Assembly: GCA_035623825.1 (NCBI GenBank) | Contig: DASPSR010000063.1 | Coordinates: forward strand, 13,982 to 77,981 | From: Nitrospirota bacterium | GTDB lineage: Bacteria; Nitrospirota; UBA9217 | DNA: 64,000 bases | Reading direction: 5' to 3' | Shown: one piece after another, positions 123 to 29,612 of the stretch | Position numbering within the stretch: the stretch's first letter is position 1 | Layout: the number at the start of each line of letters is the position of its first letter | Notes under the pieces: model-generated | Databases searched by the model: none | Told to the model about the DNA's origin: nothing | The model's input: the letters and a program-made list of their open reading frames with translations, nothing else | Translations under genes and position numbers: made by a program

Positions 123-151
123 TTGACAAAATATTTATCGTGGCTTATTAT
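123..151 (+). promoter_or_regulatory. sigma70-type promoter of the nuo operon
   Basis: TTGACA (123-128), 17-nt spacer, TATTAT (146-151), about 57 nt upstream of nuoA. Confidence 0.7.
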
Positions 152-208: not shown

Positions 209-583
209 ATGACGCCAAGTACCTATCTTCCGGAACAGTACCTGCCGGTAGTGGTTTTTCTGCTGCTCGGCTTGGCGGTCGGCTTTGGCATGCTGATCGC
301 AGGATGGTTCATCCGGCCCCGGAGACCTTATCCTGAAAAGCTGATTACGTACGAGTCCGGTATCACCCCCTTCATGGATGCCCATCAGAAGTTTTCTATC
401 CGCTATTATATTGTAGCCATGCTATTCCTCATTTTCGATATTGAAGCCGTTTTCCTCTATCCGTGGGCCGTTGCCTATGGGCAGATCGGCCTTTACGGAT
501 TTGTGGAGATGGTGATCTTCGTAGTAATCTTGCTCGTAGGATATTTCTACGCATGGAAGAAGGGGGCTCTCGAATGGGAGTAG
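209..583 (+). CDS. nuoA: NADH-quinone oxidoreductase subunit A
   Basis: 3 TM helices; [19 protein letters not shown] and WKKGALEWE motifs. Confidence 0.97.
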
Positions 584-1053
584 TGCAGAATCTCTTTGAC
601 GAAGGATATATTTCCACGACCATCGATGGGTTCCTCAATTACTGCAGGGCCTGCTCCATCTGGCCGATGACGTTCGGGCTTGCATGCTGCGCCATCGAGA
701 TGATCCAGTACTATTCCGCGCCCCAGCATGATTTCGACCGTTTCGGCACGGTCCCGCGCCCTTCACCGCGGCAGTCGGACCTCTTGCTCGTTGCCGGCAC
801 TCTGTCGAAAAAGATGGCGCCGATCGTGCGCCGCGTGTATGACCAAATGCCTGAGCCCCGGTATGTGATCGCCATGGGGAGCTGCGCCGGATCAGGCGGC
901 ATCTTCAACACCTACGCCGTGGTACAGGGCGTTGACAACATCGTCCCGGTGGATGTGTATATCCCCGGCTGTCCGCCGCGGCCTGAAGCGCTGATGTACG
1001 GCATAATGAAGTTGCAGGAGAAGATCAAGAAGGAAAAATATATCAGAAAGTAG
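574..1053 (+). CDS. nuoB: NADH-quinone oxidoreductase subunit B
   Basis: [21 protein letters not shown] and PGCPPRPE (N2 ligands); start at ATG 574 overlapping the end of nuoA. Confidence 0.96.
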
Positions 1054-1078
1054 CCCCGGAGGACTCGATAGAGGTTGT

Positions 1079-1549
1079 ATGGACCCTTTACAAATAGCCA
1101 AGATGATTGAAGAGAAGTTTGCCGGACAAGTGCTCGGCACGATGTTTTATGCTGGCCAGGTCGGTGTCTCGCTCAAGAAAGACATGATTAAAGATGTTTG
1201 TCTTTATCTTCGTGATGAACCCTCGCTCAAGATGGACCACCTCTCTGATCTCACCGCGGTCGATTTTTCCAGGTATCCCGGGGACCCCGGACCCCGGTTC
1301 GAGGTCGTGTATAACATGATATCCACCGTATACCGCCACCGCATTCGCCTAAAGGTCAGAGTACCGGAGGAGGACCCGCGGGTAGACTCGGTTGCCTCGA
1401 TCTGGCAAACGGCTAACTGGCATGAACGCGAGACCTATGACCTTATGGGAGTCAGGTTCGACGGCCACCCTGACCTCCGCAGGATCCTCCTGCCCGAGGA
1501 CTGGGAGGGTCATCCGCTCAGGAAAGAATATCCACTGAAGGGATATTGA
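1079..1549 (+). CDS. nuoC: NADH-quinone oxidoreductase subunit C
   Basis: [37 protein letters not shown]. Confidence 0.96.
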
Positions 1550-1694
1550 AACGACAAGCGCCAGTGAGCAGGAACTGAATCCTTCATGATTTCCTAGCAC
1601 CAATCACAAATAAAACCGTTTCGGAGATTGGGATTTTGATGCTGGATATAGGCTGAAATCTGAATTTTGGAATCTGATAATTAATGGTGAATAT

Positions 1695-2888
1695 ATGTCC
1701 GTTACCGTGCCGAAAGAGATCGTCCAAAAAGAAATCACCCTGAACATGGGGCCTCAGCACCCGGCCACCCACGGCGTGCTTCGCCTGGTGCTCGACCTGC
1801 AGGGCGAGACCGTGGTGGGCGTCGATCCGCGGCCAGGCTACCTTCACCGCGGGATCGAGAAGTGGATGGAGAGCAGGACCTACCATCAGATCATCCCCAT
1901 GACCGACCGGTTGGAGTATATCACCTGCATGAACAACAACCTGGGCTGGGTGGTTGCCGTGGAGAAGCTTGCCGGAATTACGGTGCCGGAGCGGGCGCAG
2001 TTCATCAGGACGCTGATGGCCGAGCTTACGCGGCTCTCCGGGCATCTTGTGTGGCTGGGGACCCACGCCCTTGACATCGGCGCCATGACGGTCTGTATGT
2101 ACACCCTCCGGGAACGGGAACTTGTCCTCGATCTGACGGAGATGGTGACGGGAGCGCGTCAGACTGTGAGCTATGTCCGCATCGGCGGTGTGCGGAACGA
2201 TATCCCCCGGGATTTTATCGACAAATGCCGGGAGTTCACCGAGCTCTTTCCCAAGCGGCTCGAAGAGTATGATACGTTGATTCGGGAAAACCGCATCTGG
2301 CTCAAGCGCACCGTGGGGATCGGCGTGATGACGCCGGAGGACGCGGTCAACTACGGCCTCACCGGCGGCACGCTGCGTGGGTCGGGCGTGAACTACGACC
2401 TCCGCAAGGTCGAACCCTATGCCGCGTACGACAAGGTGGATTTCGAAGTGCCGCTTGGAAAGAACGGCGACGTCTACGACCGGTACGTTGTGCGAATCAA
2501 TGAGATGCGCCAGAGCAACCGGATCATCAGGCAGTGCCTTGACATGATGCAGCCGGGCCCGATCAAGACCGATGACCCGCGCTATGCAGTACCCGAAAAG
2601 ATCGATGTCATGAAGAGCATGGCATCGCTGGCCCACCAGTTCGTGCTCATGAGCAAGTGGGTGCCAATGCCGAAAGGCGAGGTATATGTGGCGACCGAGG
2701 CGCCGAAGGGCGAGCTCGGCTTCTATATCGTCAGTGATGGCAGCGGAAGACCATACCGCGTTAAGATCCGCGCCCCATCGTATGTTCACATAAGCGCTCT
2801 TCCGAAAATGGTGATTGGCCATATGGTGGCAGATGTTATCGCATGCATCGGGACCATTGACATCGTGCTCGGCGAGTGCGACCGGTAG
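1695..2888 (+). CDS. nuoD: NADH-quinone oxidoreductase subunit D
   Basis: NMGPQHPATHGVLR, GYLHRGIEK, EAPKGELG, DIVLGECDR; no [NiFe] CxxC pairs. Confidence 0.97.
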   Translation: MSVTVPKEIVQKEITLNMGPQHPATHGVLRLVLDLQGETVVGVDPRPGYLHRGIEKWMESRTYHQIIPMTDRLEYITCMNNNLGWVVAVEKLAGITVPERAQFIRTLMAELTRLSGHLVWLGTHALDIGAMTVCMYTLRERELVLDLTEMVTGARQTVSYVRIGGVRNDIPRDFIDKCREFTELFPKRLEEYDTLIRENRIWLKRTVGIGVMTPEDAVNYGLTGGTLRGSGVNYDLRKVEPYAAYDKVDFEVPLGKNGDVYDRYVVRINEMRQSNRIIRQCLDMMQPGPIKTDDPRYAVPEKIDVMKSMASLAHQFVLMSKWVPMPKGEVYVATEAPKGELGFYIVSDGSGRPYRVKIRAPSYVHISALPKMVIGHMVADVIACIGTIDIVLGECDR

Positions 2889-2902: not shown

Positions 2903-3259
2903 ATGAAATTGAGAGAGATAATCAAACTCCTTCGTGCCGATGTTCTTGCGGGCGACGGCCTCGTCGATGAGATCGAGGTGGACTGCTGCTTCAGCGCAGA
3001 CCTCATGAGCGATGTGCTGGGCCGCACTCATGCGAACGGGATCCTTATCACGGGCATCACAAATCCGCAGGCAGTCCGGACTGCCGATATCGCCGACATC
3101 CGGGCGGTCTGCGTTGTGCGCGGAAAGCAGCCGGAGGCCGACGCCGTGTCCCTGGCAAAACAGAAGGATATCCCACTATTCGTCACGAAGCTGACAATGT
3201 TTGAGGCATGCGGCATACTGTACATGAACGGCCTTAAGGCAGTAGGCGAGCGGCAATAG
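2903..3259 (+). CDS. DRTGG domain protein
   Basis: SADLMSDVL...LITG...VRTA...VRGK pattern of small DRTGG proteins found in bifurcating hydrogenase operons. Confidence 0.85.
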   Translation: MKLREIIKLLRADVLAGDGLVDEIEVDCCFSADLMSDVLGRTHANGILITGITNPQAVRTADIADIRAVCVVRGKQPEADAVSLAKQKDIPLFVTKLTMFEACGILYMNGLKAVGERQ

Positions 3260-3263
3260 ACTG

Positions 3264-4217
3264 ATGGCACAGATGGGCAAAGAGCAGGGGACGCTGGACC
3301 GGGTGACCAAGACCCAGGAGATGGTCTATGAGGTCTCCGTGGGCGAGGTCATGGCTCCCAAGATGGTCACCGTGGGGCCGGAGCAGACCATGTCGGAGTT
3401 CAGAATCCTCTTGCGGGACAACCGCATCTCCGGCACGCCGGTGGTCGAGAACGGCAAGCTCGTGGGCATGGTCAGCATAGAAGACCTGATCAACGCCCTG
3501 TATGACAACGCTATAAATGCTCCCATACGGGAGAGGATGAAGACGAAGATAGAGTGTCTGTACAGCGACGAACTGCTCGTTCACTGTATCGCCAAGTTTT
3601 CCAAGTACGGGTATAGACGGTACCCCGTATTGAACCGGAATGGGGAGCTGGTCGGCATCATCACCAAAGGGAGCATCGTCGAAGGGCTGCTCAGGAAGCT
3701 TGAGATCGAATACGAGCAGCATGAGGCCAATGCTTCCCTGGCGCGGCAGCGGCCTGCGATGCGAAAGTTCTTTGAGGACGTATCTGCAGACGAGATCAGC
3801 TTCACCTTCAAGTATAATGTTACCGGTCAGACCCTGAAGGACGCGGGAAAGGCCGCAAGCGAGCTCAAGAACGCGCTCAAGAAACTGGGAGTCTGCCCGC
3901 CGCTTCTCAGGCGGATCGGGGTCGCCACCTATGAGGCGGAGATCAACCTCGCCTCGTATACAAAAGGCGGTGAGATCAGGGCACAGGTTGAGAAGTGGGG
4001 GATCATCGTAGAGGTGATCGATCATGGCCCCGGCATCCCGGATATAGAGCTGGCGATGAAGCCCGGATACTCCACGGCCCCCGATTGGGTCCGGGAACTG
4101 GGGTTCGGCGCGGGCATGGGGCTCGTGAACATAAAGAAATGCTCCGATGAAATGGATCTCAAATCATCGGTGCCCGAGGGAACACATCTGACCATGCAGT
4201 TCTACTATACGAGCTGA
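3264..4217 (+). CDS. CBS-pair plus RsbT/anti-sigma-like GHKL Ser/Thr kinase
   Basis: Two CBS motifs at the N-terminus; C-terminal YEAEIN, DHGPGIPDIELAMKPGYST and GFGAGMGL ATP-lid motifs. Confidence 0.85.
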   Translation: MAQMGKEQGTLDRVTKTQEMVYEVSVGEVMAPKMVTVGPEQTMSEFRILLRDNRISGTPVVENGKLVGMVSIEDLINALYDNAINAPIRERMKTKIECLYSDELLVHCIAKFSKYGYRRYPVLNRNGELVGIITKGSIVEGLLRKLEIEYEQHEANASLARQRPAMRKFFEDVSADEISFTFKYNVTGQTLKDAGKAASELKNALKKLGVCPPLLRRIGVATYEAEINLASYTKGGEIRAQVEKWGIIVEVIDHGPGIPDIELAMKPGYSTAPDWVRELGFGAGMGLVNIKKCSDEMDLKSSVPEGTHLTMQFYYTS

Positions 4218-4230
4218 CGGGAACAAGCCG

Positions 4231-4572
4231 ATGAATCTGAACAACATAGTAAAGGAATTCGGTCTGGAAGTGAAAACCGGTTCTGACCGCCTTGATCGCG
4301 AGGTGACGGGGGGCTACGTGAGCGATCTCCTATCAGACGTGCTGGCACATGCGGATGAAGGGATGCTCTGGGTCACGCTCCACATTCATCAGAATATCGT
4401 GGCCGTCGCGGCGCACAAGGATTTGGCGGGGATCATCCTGGTCCAGGGCAGGGATCCGGAAAAAGAAACGGTGATCAAGGCCGAAGAAGAGGGGATCCCG
4501 ATCATGGTGAGCAGCCTCTCGGCCTTCGAACTCGTTGGCAGACTGTACAAGGCAGGGATCCGTGGCGCTTAG
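4231..4572 (+). CDS. DRTGG domain protein (HPr-kinase N-domain-like)
   Basis: GGYVSDLLSDVL...WVTLHIHQNIVAVA; paralogous in pattern to 2903-3259. Confidence 0.85.
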   Translation: MNLNNIVKEFGLEVKTGSDRLDREVTGGYVSDLLSDVLAHADEGMLWVTLHIHQNIVAVAAHKDLAGIILVQGRDPEKETVIKAEEEGIPIMVSSLSAFELVGRLYKAGIRGA

Positions 4573-5308
4573 GCGCATTAAAGCTGACCTGCATGTTCAT
4601 ACATGTCTGTCACCCTGTTCAGGTCTGGACATGTCGCCTCGTGAAGTTGTAAACGCGGCTCTCAAGAAGGGTCTCGACCTGATCGGCGTGTGCGATCATA
4701 ACTCCGCAGAAAACGTTCTGGCTGTCAAGAAGGCGGGAGAACGGAACGGATTGATGGTGATCGGCGGGATGGAGGTCGCCTCTTCCGAAGAAGCGCACAT
4801 CCTGGTGTTCTTTGACGATGACGACGACCTTCTTGGATTCCAGAAGCACATCTACAGGCATCTGGACGGAAGGAATGACGAACATGCCTTCGGCCTCCAG
4901 GTGATCGCAGACGACGAAGACGGGGTGACCGGTTTCTGCGACCGTCTTCTGATCGCGGCAACGTCGCTCCCGGCCGAAGCAATCGTGGCGGAAGCACGCA
5001 TGGCAAAAGGAGAGAGCCTGGTGATCGCCGCACATGTTGACCGTGAGGCGTTCAGCATGATTGGCCAGCTGGGATTTATTCCTCCCGGTCTTTCCCTGGA
5101 CGCTGTGGAGATATCTCCCCACATCGCCGTAGCAGACGCCCGGAGACGGTTCCCTGAATGCACGAAATACCCCGTTATCACCGGCTCCGACGCGCACCAT
5201 CCCGAGGACGTCGGGAAGCGGTACACCTGCTTCACCGTTGCAGACGGGACAATAGCGGAGATCAGGATGGCCTTGGCGGGCAGGGACGGCAGAAAGACGG
5301 AGTGCTGA
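4562..5308 (+). CDS. PHP-domain metal-dependent phosphoesterase
   Basis: DLHVHT, CDHNS, E...EAH, AAHVDR, GSDAH; GTG start overlapping the upstream gene. Confidence 0.9.
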   Translation: MALRRIKADLHVHTCLSPCSGLDMSPREVVNAALKKGLDLIGVCDHNSAENVLAVKKAGERNGLMVIGGMEVASSEEAHILVFFDDDDDLLGFQKHIYRHLDGRNDEHAFGLQVIADDEDGVTGFCDRLLIAATSLPAEAIVAEARMAKGESLVIAAHVDREAFSMIGQLGFIPPGLSLDAVEISPHIAVADARRRFPECTKYPVITGSDAHHPEDVGKRYTCFTVADGTIAEIRMALAGRDGRKTEC

Positions 5309-5312
5309 GGCC

Positions 5313-5849
5313 GTGGAAGATATCTCGCTCCACATCCTCGATATCGTCGAAAACTCGATCCGTGCTGAAGCAAAGAGCGTAGAGATCATGCTGGCGAAGG
5401 ATGACGAGCACGATCTCCTCCGGATAGAGATCAGCGATGACGGCAAGGGAATGGGGCCCGAGACGCTCGAAAAGGTCAGGGATCCCTTCTTCACGACCAA
5501 GAGGAAGAAGACCGGCCTGGGGATACCCCTTCTTGCGCAGGCGGCAGAACAAACAGGCGGCAAGCTCACCGTTGATTCCGCTCCAGAAAAAGGGACACGG
5601 GTGTCGGTCACATTCCGATGGAGCCATATAGACCGGCCGGCGATCGGCAGCATGGCCGATACGCTGCTGACACTGATTGCAGGCCACCCGGACAGGGATT
5701 TTGTGTATGAGGAACGGGATGGCGAGCGGGTATTCCGATTCGACACGCGTGAGATCAAGGACGATCTAGGCGATGTGCCGATCGCGTCCCCGGCGGTAAT
5801 TGATGCAATCAGGGACTTGCTGGTGAATAACATACGACGCTTTGAATAG
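5313..5849 (+). CDS. stand-alone HATPase_c (GHKL) ATP-binding protein
   Basis: LHILDIVENS, DDGKGM, PFFTTK, GLGIPL; no HisKA domain. Confidence 0.88.
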   Translation: MEDISLHILDIVENSIRAEAKSVEIMLAKDDEHDLLRIEISDDGKGMGPETLEKVRDPFFTTKRKKTGLGIPLLAQAAEQTGGKLTVDSAPEKGTRVSVTFRWSHIDRPAIGSMADTLLTLIAGHPDRDFVYEERDGERVFRFDTREIKDDLGDVPIASPAVIDAIRDLLVNNIRRFE

Positions 5850-5883
5850 CATTATTCCAAAGCAGCAGACGATGGAGATGATA

Positions 5884-6423
5884 ATGAGTAACGATACGGT
5901 GGCACCGAAGGAAACAGCGGTTGCCGGAAAACAGCCCGCCTTGGACACGGGAGCGGACACCATAACGCCGGAGATGTATGAGAAGATCGACGGGATCATC
6001 GAGCGGTACAAGGACAAGCCCGGTTCGCTCATCCCGGTGCTCCAGCAGACGCAGGAGGTGTGCGGGTACCTGCCGCACCTCGTGCAGCGCTATATCGCGA
6101 AAGGCATGAAGATGTCGCCGAGCGTGGTGTTCGGCGTTGCCACCTTCTATTCGTTCTTCACGCTCGTGCCGCGCGGCAAACACGTCATCAGGGTCTGTCT
6201 CGGGACAGCGTGCTACGTGAAGAGGAGTGAAGAGATCCTCGAGAAGATCAAGGATGAGCTGGACCTTGAGGTGGGGGAAATCACAAGAGACAAAAAATAT
6301 TCTCTTGAAGCAGTGAGATGTCTCGGCGCCTGTGGTCTCGCGCCGGTCGTCGTGATAGGAGCGGACACGTATGGCGACGTTGCCGCCACGAAGGTGATGG
6401 ACATCATAAAGAAATATGAGTAA
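5884..6423 (+). CDS. nuoE: NuoE/HndA [2Fe-2S] subunit
   Basis: VATFYSFF, CLGTAC...CLGACG; start chosen at ATG 5884 after GGAG. Confidence 0.92.
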   Translation: MSNDTVAPKETAVAGKQPALDTGADTITPEMYEKIDGIIERYKDKPGSLIPVLQQTQEVCGYLPHLVQRYIAKGMKMSPSVVFGVATFYSFFTLVPRGKHVIRVCLGTACYVKRSEEILEKIKDELDLEVGEITRDKKYSLEAVRCLGACGLAPVVVIGADTYGDVAATKVMDIIKKYE

Positions 6424-6524
6424 ATCCTGAACGCGAAATACGAAATTCTAAACAATATCGGGAAACCGCAACAGCAGGGATCTTGATATGAAGATTTAGA
6501 ATTTCCCCTGTGAGGGGGGTAACC

Positions 6525-6902
6525 ATGGCAAAGCTGACGATTGCAGATTTGAAAAAGATCAAAGAAGATTACCATCAGGGACTGCGCGAGGGCGGGTTTC
6601 GGGCCAAGATCACGGTGCATATGGGGACCTGTGGCATCGCAGCAGGTGCCAGAGGCATCATGAACACCATCATGGAAGAGCTCGCCAAATCCAACCTGAA
6701 GGACGTGGCGATCACCACATCGGGCTGCGCCGGGCTCTGCAGCCAGGAGCCGATGGCCACAGTCGAACTTTCTGGAGAACCTCCCGTGAAATATATCTCG
6801 CTGACCGAGGAGAAGATGCGCAAGATCTTCGCGGAACATGTAGTAGGCGGGAAACCAGTCAAGGAATACGCCCTGGTCGTCGGGCATGAAACGACGTACT
6901 GA
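6525..6902 (+). CDS. HndB-like thioredoxin-fold [2Fe-2S] ferredoxin subunit
   Basis: HMGTCGIAAGA...SGCAGLCSQEP; RBS GAGGGGG. Confidence 0.88.
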   Translation: MAKLTIADLKKIKEDYHQGLREGGFRAKITVHMGTCGIAAGARGIMNTIMEELAKSNLKDVAITTSGCAGLCSQEPMATVELSGEPPVKYISLTEEKMRKIFAEHVVGGKPVKEYALVVGHETTY

Positions 6903-6939: not shown

Positions 6940-8730
6940 GTGGAGACAACATACCGCTCAAATATAATGATCTGCGCAGGGACGGGATGTGTGGCAAACG
7001 GCTCGCTCAAGGTGAAGGAGGCGCTCGAGACCGAACTGATCAGGCGAAACCTTCAGAACGAGGTCAAGATCGTCTTGACGGGGTGCAACGGGTTCTGCGC
7101 CAAAGGCCCGGTCATAGTGGTCTATCCCGAAGACATATTCTATCAGCTCGTGAAGCCTGAAGACGTGCCGCACCTTGTTGAAGAGCACTTTGTCAAGGGG
7201 AGGCCGGTCCAGAAATTCCTCTACACGCCTCCGGCGCAGAAAGACGCCATCCCCGTCATGAACGAGATCCCGTTCTTCAAACACCAGGTGCTGCGTGCGC
7301 TTCGGAACAGGAGCCTCATCGACGCCGAGAAGATAGAGGAATACATCGCCCGTGACGGCTATATGGCCGCAGCCAAGGCGCTGACCGAGATGACGCCCGA
7401 GCAGATCGTCAGCGAGGTGAAGAAGTCCGGGCTGCGCGGAAGGGGCGGGGCCGGGTTCCTCACCGGCCTCAAGTGGGAGCTCTGCGCCCGCGTCTCAGGC
7501 GAGATCAAATATATACTGTGCAACGGAGACGAGGGCGACCCGGGCGCGTTCATGGACCGCAGCGTCATGGAAGCCGATCCTCATTCCGTTCTCGAGGGCA
7601 TGATCATCGCGGCCAAGGCGATCAATGCCCACTACGGCTATATCTATGTACGTGCCGAGTACCCCCTTGCGGTGCACCGTCTTCAGCTTGCCATCGAGCA
7701 GGCCAAGGAGCGGGGCCTTTTGGGCCCGGATATCCTGGGCTCAGGATTCGCTCTGGAGATCGAGATCTACCAGGGTGCGGGTGCGTTCGTGTGCGGCGAG
7801 GAAACGGCGCTCATGGCATCCATCGAGGGCAAACGGGGCATGCCGAGGCCAAAACCGCCGTTCCCCGCGGTCAAGGGCTTGTGGCAGCGGCCGTCGGTGC
7901 TGAACAACGTCGAGACCTTTGCGAATGTGCCCCCCATCATCCTGCACGGTGCGGACTGGTTCGCGAGCCTCGGGACCGAGAAGAGCAAGGGCACCAAGGT
8001 ATTCGCCCTTTCGGGAGCGCTGAATAACATTGGCCTCGTAGAAGTGCCCATGGGCATTCCTCTCAAGACGGTGATCTACGACATCGGCGGCGGCATCAAA
8101 AACAACCGGAAGTTCAAGGCAGTGCAGATGGGCGGTCCGTCGGGAGGCTGCATTCCCCATTCGCTCATTGATACGCCCGTCGACTACGAGAACATCAACA
8201 AGACAGGAGCGATCATGGGATCCGGCGGCATGGTGGTGATGGACGAGACCACCTGCATGCCGGCCATGGCCAAATTTTTCCTTGAGTTCACTGAAGACGA
8301 GTCCTGCGGCAAGTGCGTGCCCTGCCGGATCGGGAACAAGACGCTCCTGAGCATCCTGCAACGCATCACAAACGGCGAAGGCCGCGAGGGAGACATCGAA
8401 CTTCTCTTGAACCTCTCTCAGCAGATCAAGGACACGTCGCTCTGCGGACTGGGTCAGACCTCGCCGAACCCGGTCCTCACGACGATCAAGTATTTCCGCG
8501 ACGAGTATGAGGCCCATATCAAGGAGAAGAAATGCCCGGCCAGGGTCTGCACGCCGCTGATCGAGTTCAAAGTGAACGAGGAAAAATGCAAAAAGTGCGG
8601 CCAGTGCTTCAAGAATTGCCCGGTGGGCGCCATAACCTGGGAGAAGGGCAAAGTGGCCTACATCGATCAGGAGAAGTGCACCAAGTGCAAGACGTGCATC
8701 AAGAACTGCAGGTTCTGGGCTATTGATTAA
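6940..8730 (+). CDS. nuoF: NuoF, HydB/HndC (bifurcating-type) flavoprotein subunit
   Basis: N-terminal CAGTGC...CNGFC; GRGGAGF, DEGDPGAFMDR, CGEETAL, GGPSGGC, ESCGKCVPCR; C-terminal 2x[4Fe-4S]. Confidence 0.95.
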   Translation: METTYRSNIMICAGTGCVANGSLKVKEALETELIRRNLQNEVKIVLTGCNGFCAKGPVIVVYPEDIFYQLVKPEDVPHLVEEHFVKGRPVQKFLYTPPAQKDAIPVMNEIPFFKHQVLRALRNRSLIDAEKIEEYIARDGYMAAAKALTEMTPEQIVSEVKKSGLRGRGGAGFLTGLKWELCARVSGEIKYILCNGDEGDPGAFMDRSVMEADPHSVLEGMIIAAKAINAHYGYIYVRAEYPLAVHRLQLAIEQAKERGLLGPDILGSGFALEIEIYQGAGAFVCGEETALMASIEGKRGMPRPKPPFPAVKGLWQRPSVLNNVETFANVPPIILHGADWFASLGTEKSKGTKVFALSGALNNIGLVEVPMGIPLKTVIYDIGGGIKNNRKFKAVQMGGPSGGCIPHSLIDTPVDYENINKTGAIMGSGGMVVMDETTCMPAMAKFFLEFTEDESCGKCVPCRIGNKTLLSILQRITNGEGREGDIELLLNLSQQIKDTSLCGLGQTSPNPVLTTIKYFRDEYEAHIKEKKCPARVCTPLIEFKVNEEKCKKCGQCFKNCPVGAITWEKGKVAYIDQEKCTKCKTCIKNCRFWAID

Positions 8731-8796
8731 AACGAGCTCATAGTCGAATGCTGATTGCGATTGCCAGGAGCTCTTAGGTAAGAAGGTAAAGAACTT

Positions 8797-10920
8797 ATGC
8801 AAAAAATGACAGTTACAGTAGACGGGAAAAAAGTTGAGGTCCCTGTCGGCTCGACCATCCTGGAGGCTGCGAACGCGGCCGGATCGCGGGTGCCGACCCT
8901 GTGCCACGACAACAAGCTCCATCCCTTCGGCGCGTGCAGGGTCTGTCTCGTCGAAGTGGAAGGCACGCCGCGCAAGTTCACTCCGTCGTGCACCACGCCG
9001 GCCACGGACAACATGGTCGTGAAGACATCGACACCGGCGCTCATCGAGGCGCGACGGATGGTGCTCGAGCTCCTCTTGATCAAACACCCCCTCGACTGCC
9101 CGGTCTGCGACAAGGCGGGAGAGTGCCAGCTCCAGGATCTCGTGCACGAGTACGGGCTTGGACAGAGCAGGTTCGACGCGGAGAAGGGATACCTTCCGCC
9201 GGATTACGAGAGCGCGATCATCGAGCGCAACATCAGCCGCTGCATTCTCTGCGGCAAGTGCGTCAGGATCTGCGACGAACAGAACGGCGTGGGCGAGTGG
9301 GCCTTCACCAGGCGGGGAACGCGGGCGCGCATCAGCACCGATTTCGACCGGCCGCTCGACTGCGAATTCTGCGGCGAATGCACAGAGATCTGCCCGGTCG
9401 GCGCCCTCACCACGCGCCAGTTCAAGTACAGGGCTCGGTCGTGGAACCTCGAGGCGACCGCGTCGGTCTGCAATTATTGCGGCTGCGGCTGCGGCGTCAG
9501 CTATGAGACGCGTGACGGCAAGATCATGCGGGTCGGACCCGCACGGAACAACTATCTCTGCACAAAGGGCCGATTCGGCTGGGATGCCGTCCATCACCAG
9601 GACCGGCTTACCACGCCGATGATGCGTGTTGGCGGACAGCTTGTGGATTGCACCTGGGAAGAGGCCCTTTCGATCGTCGCGACCAACTTGAAGGTGATCA
9701 GGGACAAGCACGGCGCCGGGAAGATCGGAGGATTCGGTTCGGTCCGGACCACCAACGAGGACAGCTATCTATTCCAGAAGTTCCTGCGGTCGGTTGTCGG
9801 GACGAACAATGTGGACATGCTTGCCCGGATCAAGGTCCCGAAGGGTCTGAACACGACATTCTTTTCAGGCGAATTGAGCAGGATTTCGGACCACGAGGTG
9901 ATCCTCGTGCTCGACAAGGACGTGGGCGAGATCAATCCGCTCACCGGCATCGAGATCGTGCGTGCCGTTAACAGGAAGAACCGGAAGGTAATCCTCGTGA
10001 ATGACGAGTTCAACAAGTTCAATAAAATTGCCTCGGTGGTGCTGCCCGCCTCCACCGACCGGGCGCTTGAAGAACTGCGCGGCGCGTTGTCATCCTCATC
10101 AGGAAGCGAGGAGGCAAAACGGGCAGCGGAGTTGCTGAAGAACGCCGGGAATGTCGCAGTCATCGTCCCTGCCCGGCTTTCGGACAAGGAACTTGCCAAT
10201 ATCAGGGAGCTGTGCGGGCAACTCAAGAACGTAACCTATTATCCGCTTGTCCGGCGGAGCAACTTCCAGGGCGCTCTCGATATGGGGACGGTTCCAGATT
10301 ACCTCCCCGGCTACCGGAAGGCAGAGACACCGGGCATGAATGCCGTTGAAATGATAAGTGCGATGAATACCGGTAAGCTGGCTTCGCTCTATATCATGGG
10401 CGACGATCCGGCGGGAAGCGATCAGAACCTCAAGGCAGCGTTGGGGAAGCTCGAGTTCCTTGTGGTTCAGGACATTTTCATGACCGAGACGGCCAAACTC
10501 GCCCATGTGGTGCTGCCGGCAGCCGCCAGCGCCGAGAAGTCCGGCACGTTCACCAACGTTGAGCGCAGACTTCAGCAGCTGAACAAGGCTGAGGAGCCCG
10601 TGGGGGAATCAAGGCCCGACTGGGAAATCCTCCAGGAGATCGCGAAAAGAATGGGCGGTGACATGCACTATGCGTCAGAGCGGGACATTTTGAGGGAAAT
10701 AAGATCTGTCGTTCCTCAGTATGCGGACCTCGCTTTCGGTTCCTGCTGGGCCAGCGACAAGTCCCCCTTGGCGGGGGTTCTTGCCGACCTGTCCCTTGCA
10801 ACGGATTCGATCATGAATCGGGAAGTTATCACTGCGGAGCGCCTTCTGTTCTCGTCAGGCATGACCATTACACGGTCGAAGGAAATAGGGACCATACAAC
10901 ACGTCAAGATCGAAGGGTAG
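8797..10920 (+). CDS. nuoG: NuoG (Fe-S relay plus degenerate molybdopterin-oxidoreductase fold)
   Basis: GACRVC, HPLDCPVCDKAGEC, CILCGKCVRIC, CEFCGECTEICP, CNYCGCGC; EKSGTFTNVERRLQ. Confidence 0.88.
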   Translation: MQKMTVTVDGKKVEVPVGSTILEAANAAGSRVPTLCHDNKLHPFGACRVCLVEVEGTPRKFTPSCTTPATDNMVVKTSTPALIEARRMVLELLLIKHPLDCPVCDKAGECQLQDLVHEYGLGQSRFDAEKGYLPPDYESAIIERNISRCILCGKCVRICDEQNGVGEWAFTRRGTRARISTDFDRPLDCEFCGECTEICPVGALTTRQFKYRARSWNLEATASVCNYCGCGCGVSYETRDGKIMRVGPARNNYLCTKGRFGWDAVHHQDRLTTPMMRVGGQLVDCTWEEALSIVATNLKVIRDKHGAGKIGGFGSVRTTNEDSYLFQKFLRSVVGTNNVDMLARIKVPKGLNTTFFSGELSRISDHEVILVLDKDVGEINPLTGIEIVRAVNRKNRKVILVNDEFNKFNKIASVVLPASTDRALEELRGALSSSSGSEEAKRAAELLKNAGNVAVIVPARLSDKELANIRELCGQLKNVTYYPLVRRSNFQGALDMGTVPDYLPGYRKAETPGMNAVEMISAMNTGKLASLYIMGDDPAGSDQNLKAALGKLEFLVVQDIFMTETAKLAHVVLPAAASAEKSGTFTNVERRLQQLNKAEEPVGESRPDWEILQEIAKRMGGDMHYASERDILREIRSVVPQYADLAFGSCWASDKSPLAGVLADLSLATDSIMNREVITAERLLFSSGMTITRSKEIGTIQHVKIEG

Positions 10921-10928
10921 GAGCGAAC

Positions 10929-12017
10929 ATGCCAGATATGCATCAGATATTGAGTATCGTTTATACGCTTGTTATTCCCGTCGCAGCGCTTTTGGCCTTC
11001 ATTCTGGCAAACGCCATGTACCTGCAGTTGATGGAGCGCAAGGTACTCGCGCACATGCAGGGGCGGCTCGGTCCCATGCGGACCGGCTGGCACGGGATCC
11101 TTCAGCCCGTTGCCGACGCCGTCAAGTTCATCATGAAGGAAGACATCATCCCCGCCAAGGCTGACAAATGGGTATTCAGCATAGCGCCGGTCATCATGCT
11201 CGTCATGGCCTTCGGAGCCTTCGTTGCGTTGCCCTTCGGACCGTCAACGAATTTTTACGGCCTCCTCTCAAAGAAAATCCCCCTTTGGGTGGCGAACCTG
11301 AACATAGGCGTGCTTTACATCCTCGCGCTGTCGAGCGTCGGCACATATGGCGTGATCATGGCGGGCTGGGCATCGAACAACAAGTACTCGCTGATGGGAG
11401 GTTTTCGTTCAGCGGCGCAGATGATCAGCTATGAAATCCCCATGGCCTTCGCCATTGTCACCGTCGTGCTCATGGCCGGGTCCCTGAACCTGTCCGATAT
11501 CGTAAACGCCCAGACGCATCGGTGGTTCCTTGTGGCACTGCCGGTAGGGCCGGTCGCCTTCTTCCTCTATCTCTTCTCCGGCATCGCGGAGACGAACCGC
11601 GTGCCCTTTGATTTGCCCGAGGCAGAGAGCGAACTTGTAGCCGGCTACTTTACCGAGTACACCGGCATCCGCTTCGGCCTGTTCTACATGTCGGAGTACC
11701 TGAACATGATGATCGTGTCGCTCCTCGCGAGCATCATGTTCTTGGGCGGCTGGTTGCCGGTCCAGATACTTCCCAACACGGCCATCGGCCATTTTGCCCC
11801 CATATCCCTGCTCAACAAGGCGCTGGCGGCCTTGCCGTCGACGCTCTGGCTTCTCGTGAAGCTGTATTTCTTTATCTTTTTCTACATGTGGCTGCGGGCA
11901 ACTCTGCCCAGATACCGCTATGATCAGCTCATGGCGATTTCATGGAAGATACTTCTTCCGCTCTCGCTTGCGACGCTGCTTGTTGCGGCATTCATGAGGC
12001 AGGCGGGCTGGCTGTAA
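10929..12017 (+). CDS. nuoH: NADH-quinone oxidoreductase subunit H
   Basis: ERKVLAHMQGRLGP, AETNRVPFDLPEAESELVAG, PRYRYDQLM. Confidence 0.97.
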   Translation: MPDMHQILSIVYTLVIPVAALLAFILANAMYLQLMERKVLAHMQGRLGPMRTGWHGILQPVADAVKFIMKEDIIPAKADKWVFSIAPVIMLVMAFGAFVALPFGPSTNFYGLLSKKIPLWVANLNIGVLYILALSSVGTYGVIMAGWASNNKYSLMGGFRSAAQMISYEIPMAFAIVTVVLMAGSLNLSDIVNAQTHRWFLVALPVGPVAFFLYLFSGIAETNRVPFDLPEAESELVAGYFTEYTGIRFGLFYMSEYLNMMIVSLLASIMFLGGWLPVQILPNTAIGHFAPISLLNKALAALPSTLWLLVKLYFFIFFYMWLRATLPRYRYDQLMAISWKILLPLSLATLLVAAFMRQAGWL

Positions 12018-12033
12018 AAGAGAGGTTGGCACG

Positions 12034-12510
12034 ATGAAGAAGCTAAAAAAACTGCTCAGGACCATTTTCCTTATCGAAATAGCCGAAGGGATGGCGTTGA
12101 CGCTCAAAACCATGCTGACTCCCGCGGTGACGCGGCAGTACCCGACATATAAGCGCAAACCGATCCTCGGGTCCCGCGGGCTCCATGCGATGCGGCGGGA
12201 CGAAACAGGAAAGGGGGCCTGCATCGGATGCGGCCTCTGCGAGGCCGTATGCCCTTCGAAGGCGATAACCGTGGTGACCTCCGAGGGATCCGAACATGAC
12301 AAGCTCGTGAATTCATACGAGCTAGACCTGCTCCGCTGCGTGTTTTGCGGTTTCTGCATCGATGCCTGTCCCGTTTCTGCGATATATCAGACGCCGGAGT
12401 TCGAGCTTTCCTGCTATTCACGGAAAGATGCCTTCTATACCAAGGAGCGGCTGATCGAAGTGGGCGACCGATTTATGGGCGGAAAGGCGGTAAAGAAGCA
12501 TGATCAATAA
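12034..12510 (+). CDS. nuoI: NADH-quinone oxidoreductase subunit I
   Basis: CIGCGLCEAVCP and CVFCGFCIDACP. Confidence 0.96.
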   Translation: MKKLKKLLRTIFLIEIAEGMALTLKTMLTPAVTRQYPTYKRKPILGSRGLHAMRRDETGKGACIGCGLCEAVCPSKAITVVTSEGSEHDKLVNSYELDLLRCVFCGFCIDACPVSAIYQTPEFELSCYSRKDAFYTKERLIEVGDRFMGGKAVKKHDQ

Positions 12511-13009
12511 GGTGATCTTCCTCTATTTTGCGGCAGTGATACTGGCGTCGGCCATCATGATGGTAACGCGGAGAAATCCCATCCATAGCGTATTGTTCAT
12601 GCTGCTGCTGTTTTTCCACATTGCGGGGCTGTTCGTGTTGCTCAATGCCGAGTTCCTGGCCGCGGTCCAGCTCATTGTATACGCCGGCGCCATCCTCATC
12701 CTCTATCTCTTCGTGGTGATGCTCCTGAACGTGGACAAGGAGAGCATAGCGGCCAGGGCGAACCGGTACTGGCCCTGGATAGCCGCATTCGGGATCCTCA
12801 TTGCTGGAGAGGTAGTGCTCCTTGTTTCACGAGGGATCTTCCCCGCCGACGAGGGCCAAGAGCCGATGAGGCTCGCCTCCGACGGGGTCCTTTCTCTGGG
12901 GACGGAACTTTACACAAAATATCTGGTGCCGTTCGAGATCGCATCGGTCGTGCTCTTGGTAGGGCTGGTCGGGGCTGTGATGCTGGCAAAGATAAAGACG
13001 AAGGAGTAA
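12500..13009 (+). CDS. nuoJ: NADH-quinone oxidoreductase subunit J
   Basis: AEFLAAVQLIVYAGAI, PFEIASVVLLVG. Confidence 0.96.
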   Translation: MINKVIFLYFAAVILASAIMMVTRRNPIHSVLFMLLLFFHIAGLFVLLNAEFLAAVQLIVYAGAILILYLFVVMLLNVDKESIAARANRYWPWIAAFGILIAGEVVLLVSRGIFPADEGQEPMRLASDGVLSLGTELYTKYLVPFEIASVVLLVGLVGAVMLAKIKTKE

Positions 13010-13014
13010 ATCGT

Positions 13015-13317
13015 ATGATCCCCTTATCATGGTATGTGATCCTGAGCGCTGCTCTGTTCACCATCGGCGTGGTCGGCGTGTTCTCGAGACGTAATATCTT
13101 CATCCTTCTGATGTCCATAGAACTCATGCTGAACGCGGCCAACATCAATTTCATAGCATTCTCTCATTACCTGCAGTCCCTGACTGGGCAGATATTCGTG
13201 ATCTTCGTCATCACCGTGGCCGCGGCAGAGGCCGCCGTGGCGCTTGCGATCATCATCCTGCTTGCAAGGAACCGCGGAAGTGTCTACGTCGACGAGTTCA
13301 ACATCATGAAAGGGTAG
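13015..13317 (+). CDS. nuoK: NADH-quinone oxidoreductase subunit K
   Basis: LMSIELMLNA, VAAAEAAVALA. Confidence 0.97.
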   Translation: MIPLSWYVILSAALFTIGVVGVFSRRNIFILLMSIELMLNAANINFIAFSHYLQSLTGQIFVIFVITVAAAEAAVALAIIILLARNRGSVYVDEFNIMKG

Positions 13318-13453
13318 GGATAGAGTCCCAGATCCCGGAAGCAAGTGCCATAGGCCCTTATCACCGAAGGAGAAGCGCGTTTTTTGATTTAGAGGTCGGC
13401 CGATGTCTGGGGTTGGGGATTTGATTGGCAGATATTAAACCGAGGTGCACGAC

Positions 13454-15382
13454 ATGCTTACATACGCATTGATTCCGATCCTGCCGTTCGCCGGCTTCCT
13501 GATCGCGGGACTGTTCGGCAAGTATCTCAAGGAGAGGGCGGCATACGCCGCTATAGCCGGAGTCGTCGGCGCGTTTCTTCTTTCGTTCAGCACATTCCTC
13601 GACGTGCTCGACGGGACGATCATAAATGAGAACCTCTATTCCTGGATTTCCATCGGCACCCTCAGCGTGAATGTAGGTTTCCAGATCGACCAGCTCACAG
13701 CGGTGATGCTCCTCGTGGTGACCACGCTCAGCTCCCTCATCCACATATACTCGGTGGGATACATGCACGGCGACAAGGGATATGCGCGCTTCTTCTCCTA
13801 CCTGGCGCTTTTCACGTTCTTCATGCTTGTGCTGGTGATGGCCAACAACTTCCTCCTCATGTTCGTGGGCTGGGAAGGGGTGGGCCTCTGCTCCTATCTC
13901 CTCATCGGTTTCTGGTATGAGAAAAAATCCGCTTCGGATGCGGGCGTCAAGGCGTTTGTCGTGAACCGCGTCGGCGACTTCGGATTCGTGCTTGGAATGC
14001 TGCTTATCTTCAGCACGTTCGGCACCCTTGATTTCGCCGGCGTCTTTGCCGCCCTCTCCGGACCCGCGGCGAAGCAGAGCATTGCCCTGCTCGGCGGCAA
14101 TATCAGCGTGGTCACCCTGATCGCGCTTCTCCTGTTCCTCGGAGCGACGGGCAAATCCGCACAGCTCCCGCTCTATGTCTGGCTGCCGGATGCCATGGAG
14201 GGCCCGACGCCGGTCAGCGCCTTGATCCACGCCGCGACCATGGTAACCGCAGGGGTGTTTATGGTGTCGCGCTGCGCGCCGATCTTCTCGCTTTCGGAGA
14301 CGGCGATGACAACGGTGGCCGTGGTCGGCGGCCTGACCGCGGTCTTTGCGGCGACCATCGGCCTCGTGCAGAATGACATCAAGAGGGTTATCGCATACTC
14401 CACTATCAGTCAGCTCGGATACATGTTCCTGGGCCTTGGTGTTGGGGCGTTCTCCGCCGGCATTTTCCACCTCACGACGCATGCCTTCTTCAAGGGGCTC
14501 CTGTTCCTGGCGTCGGGCAGCGTCATCCATGCCCTGTCCGGCGAACAGGACATGCGCAAGATGGGTGCGCTCAAGTCCAAGATCAGCATCACCCATGTGG
14601 TCTTTATCATCGGATCTCTTGCGCTGGCGGGCATCTTCCCGTTCGCGGGGTTCTTCAGCAAGGATGAGATCCTCTGGAGCGCGTACAGCTCACCCGGGAT
14701 GGGGAGGGTGCTGTGGCTCCTCGGCGTGGCAGGGGCGTTCATGACGGCGTTCTACTCGTTCCGTCTGATCTACCTGACGTTCTATGGGGAATCGCGCATA
14801 GACCATGAGGTCGAACACCACGTGCATGAGTCGCCGAAGGTGATGACCGTACCGCTCATGATCCTGGCGTTCTTCTCCCTGACCATAGGATGGATCGGCA
14901 TGCCGGGGGCGATCCTTCCCAACGTCAACCTGTTCGGAAACTTCCTCGCGCCAATCTTCCCGCATGCGGAGCATGCGGCCGCGGAGAGCCATGGCATCGA
15001 GAGATGGTTGATGCTCTTCTCGGTCCTGGTCGCGCTCTCGGGCATCAGGATGGCCTATTCCCTCTACGTGAAGAACACGTCGCTCCCGGACCGTATCGCT
15101 GACCGCTACAAAGGTGCCTACAACCTGCTCCTTTCCAAGTATAAGATTGACGAGATATACAACTATCTTTTCGTCGATGGCCTGGTCCACAAGGTCGCCA
15201 CGTTCCTGTACAAAGTCGGCGACGTCAAGATCGTTGACGGCGCGGTGAACGGCATCGCCAGACTCATCGGGACGACAAGCGAGCGGGGCCGGAGGATTCA
15301 AACCGGCTATGTGCAGCAGTACGCGTTCACCATGGGGCTCGGTCTCGTGGTGCTCGTTGGGCTTTATTATGTCTTGAAGTGA
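13454..15382 (+). CDS. nuoL: NADH-quinone oxidoreductase subunit L
   Basis: GWEGVGLCSYLLIGFW, WLPDAMEGPTPVSALIHAATMV; alternative GTG start at 13445. Confidence 0.97.
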   Translation: MLTYALIPILPFAGFLIAGLFGKYLKERAAYAAIAGVVGAFLLSFSTFLDVLDGTIINENLYSWISIGTLSVNVGFQIDQLTAVMLLVVTTLSSLIHIYSVGYMHGDKGYARFFSYLALFTFFMLVLVMANNFLLMFVGWEGVGLCSYLLIGFWYEKKSASDAGVKAFVVNRVGDFGFVLGMLLIFSTFGTLDFAGVFAALSGPAAKQSIALLGGNISVVTLIALLLFLGATGKSAQLPLYVWLPDAMEGPTPVSALIHAATMVTAGVFMVSRCAPIFSLSETAMTTVAVVGGLTAVFAATIGLVQNDIKRVIAYSTISQLGYMFLGLGVGAFSAGIFHLTTHAFFKGLLFLASGSVIHALSGEQDMRKMGALKSKISITHVVFIIGSLALAGIFPFAGFFSKDEILWSAYSSPGMGRVLWLLGVAGAFMTAFYSFRLIYLTFYGESRIDHEVEHHVHESPKVMTVPLMILAFFSLTIGWIGMPGAILPNVNLFGNFLAPIFPHAEHAAAESHGIERWLMLFSVLVALSGIRMAYSLYVKNTSLPDRIADRYKGAYNLLLSKYKIDEIYNYLFVDGLVHKVATFLYKVGDVKIVDGAVNGIARLIGTTSERGRRIQTGYVQQYAFTMGLGLVVLVGLYYVLK

Positions 15383-15464
15383 CGTGCGGAGAGCATAGGG
15401 AGGAGCGCAAAGGGCAGATGCCTTTCGCTCCACGTCCCATGCTCTGTGTCAAAAGGAGTCATAC

Positions 15465-17009: not shown

Positions 17010-17109
17010 AAATTGAAGGCTGGAGAACGCGGTAGTGAAGGCACGTAATGGGCGATTACCAATTTCCCATTTGCACTTTACACTAGAACGAGGTCTTTAA
17101 GGAGTTACC

Positions 17110-18564: not shown

Positions 18565-18889
18565 TGGAACGATCGCCTGCCTGTTTTCGCCTCGGGAGGC
18601 GGCAGCTGGAGCAAGGCACACCAGGGCACTCTTTCTGGCAGGATGCGGAACGATGAACGCATGGTTTGGTCGGCTTGTTCGTAAGAAATCTGCAGCAGGT
18701 GACGGTATTCGGCACTCCCTGACGTAGAACGGCGCCCTCTCCTGTCGGACGGCTCAAGCCAGGCTCTTTAACACGCCGGATTTGGCTGGCGGACGATGTC
18801 CCGCCGACCACCTCCCTCTCCCCCCTGTGACAAACTCGCATATGTTTTATCTCATACCGGTTCGACGTAATCCATGGTATATTTTGTTC

Positions 18890-29521: not shown

Positions 29522-29612
29522 TACAGAGTCCCCATGCTTTACCGCGAAGACGCCAGGTCGCCACATTATTGCTTAAACGTATTTGAGACTAGGTGGCAGA
29601 TAGGGTTAAAAG

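Follow-up and report, generated by a model that had tools for sequence, protein, structure and literature searches.

A conserved kinase, DRTGG and PHP phosphoesterase gene cassette inside a predicted Nuo-Bfu complex I operon of a Nitrospirota bacterium

What are five genes for a sensor kinase, two small DRTGG proteins, a phosphoesterase, and a second ATPase doing inside an operon for respiratory complex I? They lie between nuoD and nuoE in a 64,000-nucleotide stretch of a Nitrospirota bacterium (assembly GCA_035623825.1, contig DASPSR010000063.1, positions 13,982 to 77,981), hereafter the window. We found this cassette to be conserved, under selection, and co-inherited with the Bfu-type input module of the enzyme (NuoE-HndB-NuoF), and, because it accompanies that module in many phyla, it is probably the control system of the module. 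That the cassette is a dedicated regulatory one for a Bfu-type input module is likely; that it is a dedicated ATP-dependent signaling set for this module in a second, Nuo-Bfu isoform of complex I is a reading to which we give a probability of about 0.5; and a specific serine-phosphorylation switch is possible.

The five genes are all encoded on the + strand between the end of nuoD (2888) and the start of nuoE (5842), and they are separated by gaps of 14, 4, 13, and 4 nucleotides and by two overlaps:

2903..3259, + strand: DRTGG-1, 118 amino acids; Pfam score of 24.6 bits; invariant Ser36 (codon 3008-3010) in DLMSDVL
3264..4217, + strand: CBS pair plus HATPase_c_2 (SpoIIAB-type) kinase, 317 amino acids; CBS pair at about 3339-3698, kinase domain at about 3837-4199
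4231..4572, + strand: DRTGG-2, 113 amino acids; Pfam score of 24.2 bits; invariant Ser35 (codon 4333-4335) in DLLSDVL
4535..5308 (with a TTG start), + strand: PHP plus PHP_C metallo-phosphoesterase, assigned by Pfam; overlaps the end of DRTGG-2
5313..5849, + strand: HisKA-less GHKL ATPase, 178 amino acids; HATPase_c at residues 1-103, a conserved domain at the C terminus, and the motif SHIDRxPxG

This tight packing had been described in a first-pass annotation made from the letters alone, and it was borne out, as were the DLMSDVL and DLLSDVL motifs, which lie at 2999-3019 and 4324-4344 (the latter computed from the gene start). A Pfam scan likewise agreed with the annotation that the kinase carries a CBS pair, that the ATPase lacks HisKA, and that a hydrogenase gene is missing, with no hydrogenase domain detected among the called open reading frames (ORFs) of the 64-kb window.

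Within the Nitrospirota, the kinase and the input module were found together. Across 41 genomes, a full-length CBS-kinase orthologue is present in 19 of the 25 genomes that belong to the window's family and in none of the 16 from other families, and a HydB-type NuoF orthologue (≥81% identity) occurs in exactly the same 19; the remaining six family genomes have no kinase and only NuoF paralogues of ≤58% identity. Since the family genomes are kin, this co-occurrence does not represent 25 independent trials. The cassette gene order is identical in all 18 relatives' loci, which come from separate assemblies, with nuoD immediately 5′ of DRTGG-1 in 16 of the 18 and nuoE next after the small ATPase in every one of the 17 loci long enough to show it. 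In two relatives of one genus (L027 of G006, 16887-18669; L028 of G022, 11285-13040), an extra NuoE/NuoF-like pair, 31 to 49% identical to the window's proteins, sits between nuoD and DRTGG-1.

The five cassette genes are under purifying selection. In comparison with a same-genus relative (L014), their ratios of nonsynonymous to synonymous substitution rates (dN/dS) are, in gene order, 0.081, 0.064, 0.132, 0.116, and 0.164, and those of nuoD, nuoE, HndB, nuoF, and nuoH are 0.03 to 0.07; this comparison (dS of 0.35 to 0.77) is the sole unsaturated one, the four more distant comparisons having a dS of about 1 or above. In another member of the genus (L015 of G001), nearly all of the operon genes are broken into two to six tblastn pieces, which looks like assembly frameshift error rather than decay, because nuo and cassette genes are equally affected.

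To follow the cassette beyond this family, we surveyed one genome per species and took the best 80 of at least 600 stretches with a CBS-kinase homologue, with counts made from tblastn maps of the window proteins, as ORF calling misses genes in high-GC loci. These 80 loci span about 15 phylum-level labels, and 46 of them hold all five cassette genes. Cultured carriers include Breznakiella homolactica RmG30, whose cassette is of a reduced form (L092), and Thermoanaerobacter mathranii has the HydS variant. A NuoF-like gene is present in 55, of which 53 also contain HndB; the chance expectation for a NuoF-like gene is about 2.5%, as estimated from 4 such genes in 3.2 Mb. The GHKL ATPase tracks NuoF, both being present in 50 loci and both absent from 24, whereas NuoF occurs alone in five (three of them cut by contig ends) and the ATPase alone in one, also at a contig end. 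When only the 38 loci that extend 8 kb or more to both sides are considered, the corresponding counts are 29 with both, 7 with neither, 2 with NuoF only, and 0 with the ATPase only. Moreover, in four loci the ATPase is found with NuoE/HndB/NuoF on the strand opposite to kinase-DRTGG2-PHP.

In the subset of loci annotated with Pfam, the NuoF-like gene is present whatever the annotated catalytic partner. These partners include (i) an HdrA-like protein, MvhD, and a [NiFe] hydrogenase (e.g., L036 and L046); (ii) a doubled NuoEF together with either a [NiFe] hydrogenase (L070 and L081) or a formate dehydrogenase (L068 and L063); and (iii) a divergent [FeFe] HydA (L099, L106, and L111). The first-pass annotation had linked such genes to [FeFe]-hydrogenase operons of Firmicutes; [FeFe] partners do occur, but the link proved too narrow, given the phylum labels covered and the [NiFe]/Hdr, formate dehydrogenase, and Nuo partners. 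Four complex I operons are found among the 80 loci: two in Nitrospirota, in which the cassette recurs (L032 and L033), and two in metagenome-assembled genomes (MAGs) labeled Thermodesulfobacteriota and Actinomycetes (L061 and L062). The latter two are complete nuoA-N operons, with nuoH-N at the end, that carry the cassette in split form, with DRTGG1-kinase 5′ of nuoA and DRTGG2-PHP-GHKL between nuoD and nuoE.

Three of the surveyed neighborhoods merit separate description. In a Fidelibacterota MAG (L040, 16986-19070), the gene after NuoE-HndB-NuoF encodes a 694-residue fusion of a NuoG-type 2Fe-2S N terminus with an amidohydrolase, an unusual partner for a NuoEF module. In an Atribacterota MAG (L109, 8720-9397), a gene with Put_DNA-bind_N and CoA_binding domains, presumably a Rex-type architecture, lies just upstream of the cassette and downstream of a cluster resembling a group-4 membrane-bound [NiFe] hydrogenase. 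In a Nitrospirota genome of another family (L031 of G036, 7353-16440), the cassette kinase has no CBS pair, and the genes adjoining the cassette encode three receiver proteins, a sigma-54 activator, and a histidine kinase with HAMP and HisKA domains; downstream, a NuoE with an N-terminal receiver domain is followed by a formate dehydrogenase-like NuoG (819 residues, with Molydop_binding). A receiver domain was considered for the long NuoE forms beside cassettes in general and was dropped, 13 of 15 extensions being HdrA-like FAD/Fer4, one Fer2, and one unmatched.

Natural fusions connect the cassette proteins to one another. The kinase is fused to a HydS-like protein with Fe-S and H-domains in 8 of 20 architectures checked, and to DRTGG1 in 7 of 11 checked, the DRTGG-1 profile outscoring the DRTGG-2 profile in each of the seven; a CBS-kinase-DRTGG2 fusion also occurs (P0358). 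Most of the 107 longer DRTGG-2 homologues are fusions of a HydS-like sensor with DRTGG2, and precomputed domains indicated 10 DRTGG2-PHP fusions, of which nine were checked and all nine confirmed. Among 86 longer homologues of the small ATPase, 74 match a PHP-GHKL fusion in length and score, 69 such candidates being annotated with PHP or PHP_C and the N-terminal PHP being confirmed in four of four; finally, a GHKL-NuoE fusion is represented by a single sequence (P0452). Because these fusions join every neighboring pair, up to NuoE, the five proteins probably work as a single assembly in contact with NuoE.

The kinase contains two CBS stretches (PF00571, E = 5.7e-26) and HATPase_c_2 (PF13581, E = 6.9e-9) without a HisKA domain. 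It retains the Bergerat-fold motifs, with the N-box (E224 and N228), G1 (D253xGxG257), and G2 (G280-G286) invariant in 30 sequences. Its best solved relative is SpoIIAB (1til/1l0o, E = 4.5e-12), and in NCBIfam it scores 47.6 bits against spIIAB (TIGR01925), for which the cut-off is 135. The small neighbors of this kinase are DRTGG proteins, not the STAS proteins that serve as substrates or antagonists of SpoIIAB, RsbW, and RsbT kinases. In the alignment of 30 sequences, both halves of the CBS pair show stretches resembling the CBS motif Gh[h][ST]xx[DN]. Among 50%-identity cluster representatives, 75 homologues of the kinase were recovered at E ≤ 1e-30, about 55 of them full length. Because fusions join the same kinase to a HydS-like protein, the CBS pair is, as judged from these architectures, one of at least two exchangeable sensors, the other being HydS-like.

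DRTGG-1 and DRTGG-2 score just under the Pfam PF07085 gathering threshold (24.6 and 24.2 bits versus 25.2; 24.4 and 23.6 bits in a whole-genome PF07085 search). Both are nonetheless members of the DRTGG family because the DRTGG-1 profile matches 3l2b/3l31 (E = 5e-5) and 2ioj (E = 0.018) in the PDB, and the DRTGG-2 model (predicted local distance difference test score of 97) matches the fold of AF1212 (2ioj; template modeling [TM] score of 0.82) and of 3l2b (TM score of 0.71). The fold matches listed for this model include no STAS structure. The serine of the DLxSDVL motif is invariant in 43 of 43 DRTGG-1 and 47 of 47 DRTGG-2 sequences. Other invariant residues are Asp33 and Leu39 in DRTGG-1, around Ser36, and Tyr29, Asp32, Thr49, Asn55, and Val59 in DRTGG-2, around Ser35; in the predicted model, Ser35 occupies the first turn of a helix (residues 34 to 40) that follows a strand. 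Complex predictions for kinase residues 160 to 317 with DRTGG-2, run without controls, gave ipSAE values of 0.01 and 0.21 against a mark of 0.32.

The phosphoesterase matches PHP (PF02811, E = 1.3e-8) and PHP_C (E = 4.3e-7), and no variation was seen in its candidate metal ligands (HxH, DH, E, H, H, and DxH). In alignment numbering, the residues invariant in 43 sequences are His6, His8, Asp40, His41, Glu66, His74, His153, Asp205, and His207, a His/Asp/Glu set that we take to bind metal, as is familiar from this family. Its profile retrieved 12 PDB sequences at E ≤ 0.01, which represent EndoQ, 3e0f, RNase AM, 9etk (a metal-dependent phosphoesterase of the PHP family), TM0559, 2yb1, PolC, YcdX, and 3e38; none of the 12 is named as a protein phosphatase, such as those of the CpsB/YwqE type. 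The protein also resembles, weakly, the NCBIfam 3′,5′-nucleoside bisphosphate phosphatase (31.5 bits; cut-off of 400), and none of the five cassette proteins reaches a curated NCBIfam cut-off.

The small ATPase has HATPase_c as its only Pfam domain and lacks the HisKA/DHp phospho-acceptor domain of two-component histidine kinases. Its model comprises a domain like the catalytic and ATP-binding domain of histidine kinases and a small C-terminal domain, and His7, Asp10, Asn14, the glycines of G1 and G2, and the SHIDRxPxG motif (with Asp107 and Gly112) are invariant in 40 sequences. Over its full length, it also resembles the N-terminal regions of the GHL clamp ATPases MutL/PMS2 and Topo VI-B (TM scores of 0.5 to 0.6).

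The remainder of the operon indicates which enzyme this cassette accompanies, its other features being as follows:

123..151, + strand: promoter-like site TTGACA-17-TATTAT upstream of nuoA; 11 of 12 consensus matches; weak evidence
209..2888, + strand: nuoA, nuoB, nuoC, and nuoD (Q-module and first membrane subunit); Pfam Oxidored_q4, Oxidored_q6, Complex1_30kDa, and Complex1_49kDa
5842..6423, + strand: nuoE (BfuC-like); Pfam
6510..6902, + strand: HndB-like thioredoxin-type 2Fe-2S protein; Pfam
6940..8730, + strand: nuoF, HydB/BfuB-type, 596 amino acids; N-terminal thioredoxin-like 2Fe-2S domain and C-terminal 2x[4Fe-4S]; Pfam
8797..10920, + strand: nuoG, 707 amino acids, without a Molydop_binding domain; Pfam
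up to 18564, + strand: nuoH, I, J, K, L, M, and N; Pfam; together with nuoG, 8797..18564

The promoter-like site counts as weak evidence because a promoter and terminator scan of the region yielded site totals no higher than in shuffles; the same scan placed no terminator-like site within the short cassette gaps. Downstream of the operon, at 27866-31943, a 551-residue glutamate-synthase-domain protein with an Fer4 motif and a 776-residue Pyr_redox_2 protein are encoded in succession, perhaps a further pair of iron-sulfur flavoproteins.

A 14-subunit Nuo-Bfu complex I, with an input module of the BfuABC (HydABC) type, has been predicted, though not purified, by Schut et al. (2022; PMC9304861), whose text places it in Nitrospirae and Planctomycetes (BfuB clade 39) and predicts, without measurement, that it confurcates NADH and reduced ferredoxin to menaquinone. 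BfuB is defined there by a NuoF core (flavin mononucleotide [FMN], SLBB, and NADH_4Fe-4S) plus 4Fe-4S ferredoxin-type domains (PMC9304861). The window's NuoF contains Complex1_51K, NADH_4Fe-4S, Fer4 at residues 544 to 591, and an N-terminal 2Fe-2S_thioredx domain, with SLBB below threshold (19.8 bits; cut-off of 27); it is thus a BfuB-type NuoF within a complete nuoA-N cluster, although it, NuoE, and NuoG all fall just below their NCBIfam equivalog cut-offs. By its NuoF domain set, and by the central position of the NuoE/F/G genes in a nuoA-N operon, the enzyme matches the predicted Nuo-Bfu class, and not classical complex I, as far as gene content can tell; the operon described here differs in adding the five cassette genes and an HndB-like subunit. 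The Nuo-Bfu text of Schut et al. mentions no kinase, PHP, or HATPase, while its figures and supplements may show extra genes, one figure legend stating that "processing or regulatory" genes were left uncolored (PMC9304861).

The same genome (G000) offers an internal comparison. Because a canonical nuoA-N operon sits on another contig (C27, about 162.8 to 178.1 kb, locus L124), the genome has two complex I isoforms. The canonical operon encodes a fused NuoCD (582 residues), NuoE (154 residues), NuoF (425 residues), and NuoG (934 residues) with no extra genes, and nothing is inserted between its nuoD and nuoE. Each cassette gene is single copy in the genome, and neither a NuoEF-formate dehydrogenase in a Wood-Ljungdahl cluster (contig C22) nor a NuoEF-NuoG-like-carbon monoxide dehydrogenase set (C13) is accompanied by the cassette. 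The NuoG-like formate dehydrogenase gene on C22 (locus L122, 4200-6872) is split into frames of 346 and 539 residues, a pattern that a selenocysteine codon read as an in-frame stop may explain. No Fe_hyd_lg_C domain was found in this genome, which is 89.65% complete.

In the mechanism that we favor, the CBS pair would bind an adenine nucleotide and thereby determine how active the attached SpoIIAB-type kinase is; this kinase would phosphorylate the invariant helix-start serine of one or both DRTGG proteins; and the PHP enzyme, in concert with the small GHKL ATPase, its frequent fusion partner, would reset the state. The output would be post-translational, acting on NuoE/HndB/NuoF so as to gate the input of NADH and ferredoxin into the quinone-reducing, proton-pumping body of the enzyme. 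In other bacteria, a HydS-type iron-sulfur sensor takes the place of the CBS pair on the same kinase. A regulatory role is plausible because of the linkage, the fusions, the invariant motifs, and the low dN/dS values, and DRTGG serine phosphorylation is the most economical version of it because the nearest solved relative of the kinase is the serine kinase SpoIIAB. The first-pass annotation had proposed an energy-charge-sensing switch on the complex I input module, in which the kinase writes on the DRTGG serines and PHP erases. The switch itself gained from the linkage to the module and from the invariant serine and ATP-binding motifs, whereas energy charge as its signal is suggested by the CBS pair only. 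Similarly, the writing and erasing roles accord with the invariant serine and the kinase-DRTGG-PHP fusions, but the relatives of the PHP protein are not protein phosphatases, and that scheme gave the second ATPase no role, though it is very often fused to PHP.

Several observations weigh against this mechanism. The nearest solved relatives of the PHP protein are nucleic-acid or nucleotide esterases (endonuclease Q, RNase AM, and the pAp-phosphatase type), the candidate substrates have a DRTGG rather than a STAS fold, and the GHL clamp likeness of the modeled small ATPase would fit an ATP-driven switch or chaperone better than a kinase. Of the 38 loci flanked by 8 kb or more on both sides, 7 have no NuoF-like gene nearby, and two other Bfu-type modules of the window's own genome work without the cassette. 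Furthermore, the fusions of adjacent genes could partly be assembly or gene-calling errors, and the GHKL-NuoE fusion is represented by one sequence only, on a contig of 2.1 kb.

Some of these points are what a maturation or assembly function would predict, with an ATP-driven GHKL chaperone or clamp, an esterase, and small adaptors that load FMN or Fe-S clusters or dock the Bfu input module onto the body of complex I. The placement of the cassette among structural genes in operon order, the full-length match of the small ATPase model to MutL/PMS2/Topo VI-B N-terminal regions, the action of PHP relatives on nucleotides, and the strict tracking of NuoE/HndB/NuoF by the ATPase are all consistent with such a set. 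We nevertheless consider it unlikely: in this one genome, the cassette is missing from the canonical complex I and from two further Bfu-type modules, the exchange of a CBS pair for a HydS-like sensor on the kinase is typical of signaling, and the nearest solved relative of that kinase is a protein serine kinase.

A small-molecule circuit would dispense with protein phosphorylation altogether, the PHP enzyme hydrolyzing a nucleotide (pAp, Ap4A, or similar) that is read by the CBS pair, and the GHKL proteins serving as ATP sensors. This would accommodate the PHP profile matches to 2yb1, the 3e0f type, and RNase AM, the weak likeness to 3′,5′-nucleoside bisphosphate phosphatase, and the joint occurrence of CBS and DRTGG in the nucleotide-regulated part of CBS-pyrophosphatases (3l2b). 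It appears improbable, however, in view of PHP being kept in cassettes whose kinase has a HydS-like sensor or no sensor, and hence no CBS pair, and of the invariance of both the serine in the two DRTGG proteins and the N-box, G1, and G2 motifs of the kinase.

Partner switching on transcription, with the kinase as an anti-sigma factor, the DRTGG proteins as its antagonists, and operon expression as the output, is quite improbable as well. Although the anti-sigma F factor SpoIIAB is the top match of the kinase domain both among solved structures and in NCBIfam, and the sensor-less cassette in L031 has a sigma-54 activator beside it, along with receiver proteins and a histidine kinase, the fold of the small proteins is DRTGG and no STAS protein is present, the fusions lead to NuoE and not to a regulator, and the Pfam scan of the window ORFs revealed no sigma-factor or DNA-binding domain (the 80 loci were not searched systematically for sigma factors). 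Lastly, an assembly chimera, which the first-pass annotation had named as a possible undoing of its proposal, or a recent neutral or decaying insertion unrelated to complex I, is effectively excluded because all 18 relatives, which come from assemblies of their own, keep the gene order and dN/dS is low (0.06 to 0.16), with recurrence in L032 and L033 and the split form in two distant nuo operons pointing the same way.

Returning to the signaling reading, among its closest precedents are the partner-switching modules SpoIIAB/SpoIIAA/SpoIIE and RsbW/RsbV/RsbU, in which a serine kinase, a STAS substrate, a PP2C phosphatase, and a sigma factor operate together. The cassette shares with them (i) a small HATPase_c_2 serine kinase, (ii) a metal-dependent phosphoesterase encoded alongside, and (iii) small single-domain proteins with one invariant serine near a helix start. 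It differs in having DRTGG instead of STAS, PHP instead of PP2C, and a second GHKL ATPase, in showing no sigma factor, and in having a redox flavoprotein as its genomic partner. The family II CBS-pyrophosphatases (3l2b/3l31), whose CBS-DRTGG-CBS inserts have been described as binding AMP/ADP/ATP and Ap4A, resemble it in their DRTGG fold and profile and in combining a CBS pair with DRTGG in one system; unlike the cassette, they are single polypeptides that regulate their own enzyme allosterically, with neither a kinase nor a phosphoesterase. A third comparison is the neighborhood of TamHydS, a group D (M2e) putative sensory [FeFe] hydrogenase reported to have a "histidine kinase-like ATPase" at its flank, with a bifurcating hydrogenase downstream, and whose signaling and interaction partners are stated to be unknown (PMC8163306 and PMC13104023). 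Homologues of the cassette kinase and of DRTGG-2 occur as fusions with HydS-like proteins (Fer4, Fe_hyd_lg_C, and PF04060); here, by contrast, a CBS pair takes the role of sensor, no Fe_hyd_lg_C was detected in the genome, and the enzyme served is complex I.

Our literature searches, which covered DRTGG papers by title and the start of the abstract, retrieved no paper describing the cassette and nothing that addresses post-translational control of NuoEF/Bfu modules. In its broadest form, which we regard as doubtful, our proposal would be that the cassette is a phylum-spanning, undescribed post-translational switch for Bfu modules, in which DRTGG proteins replace STAS proteins as serine phospho-acceptors and PHP/GHKL replace PP2C; that the operon described here would be the first complex I whose input module is switched, or docked, by an adenylate-sensing kinase; and that the same proteins would be the missing partners of the group D "sensory" [FeFe] hydrogenases.

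In anaerobes, it is the electron-bifurcating NuoEF/Bfu modules that determine how NADH and ferredoxin are balanced, and the cassette supplies a conserved parts list for them, namely, a sensor kinase, two candidate acceptors, an esterase, and a second ATPase, together with their invariant residues. Its fusions name specific candidate partners for HydS, and a natural contrast exists within a single genome, where the Nuo-Bfu isoform has the cassette and the canonical complex I does not. The locus thereby invites a testable hypothesis, namely, that the nucleotide status of the cell may gate a respiratory complex I.

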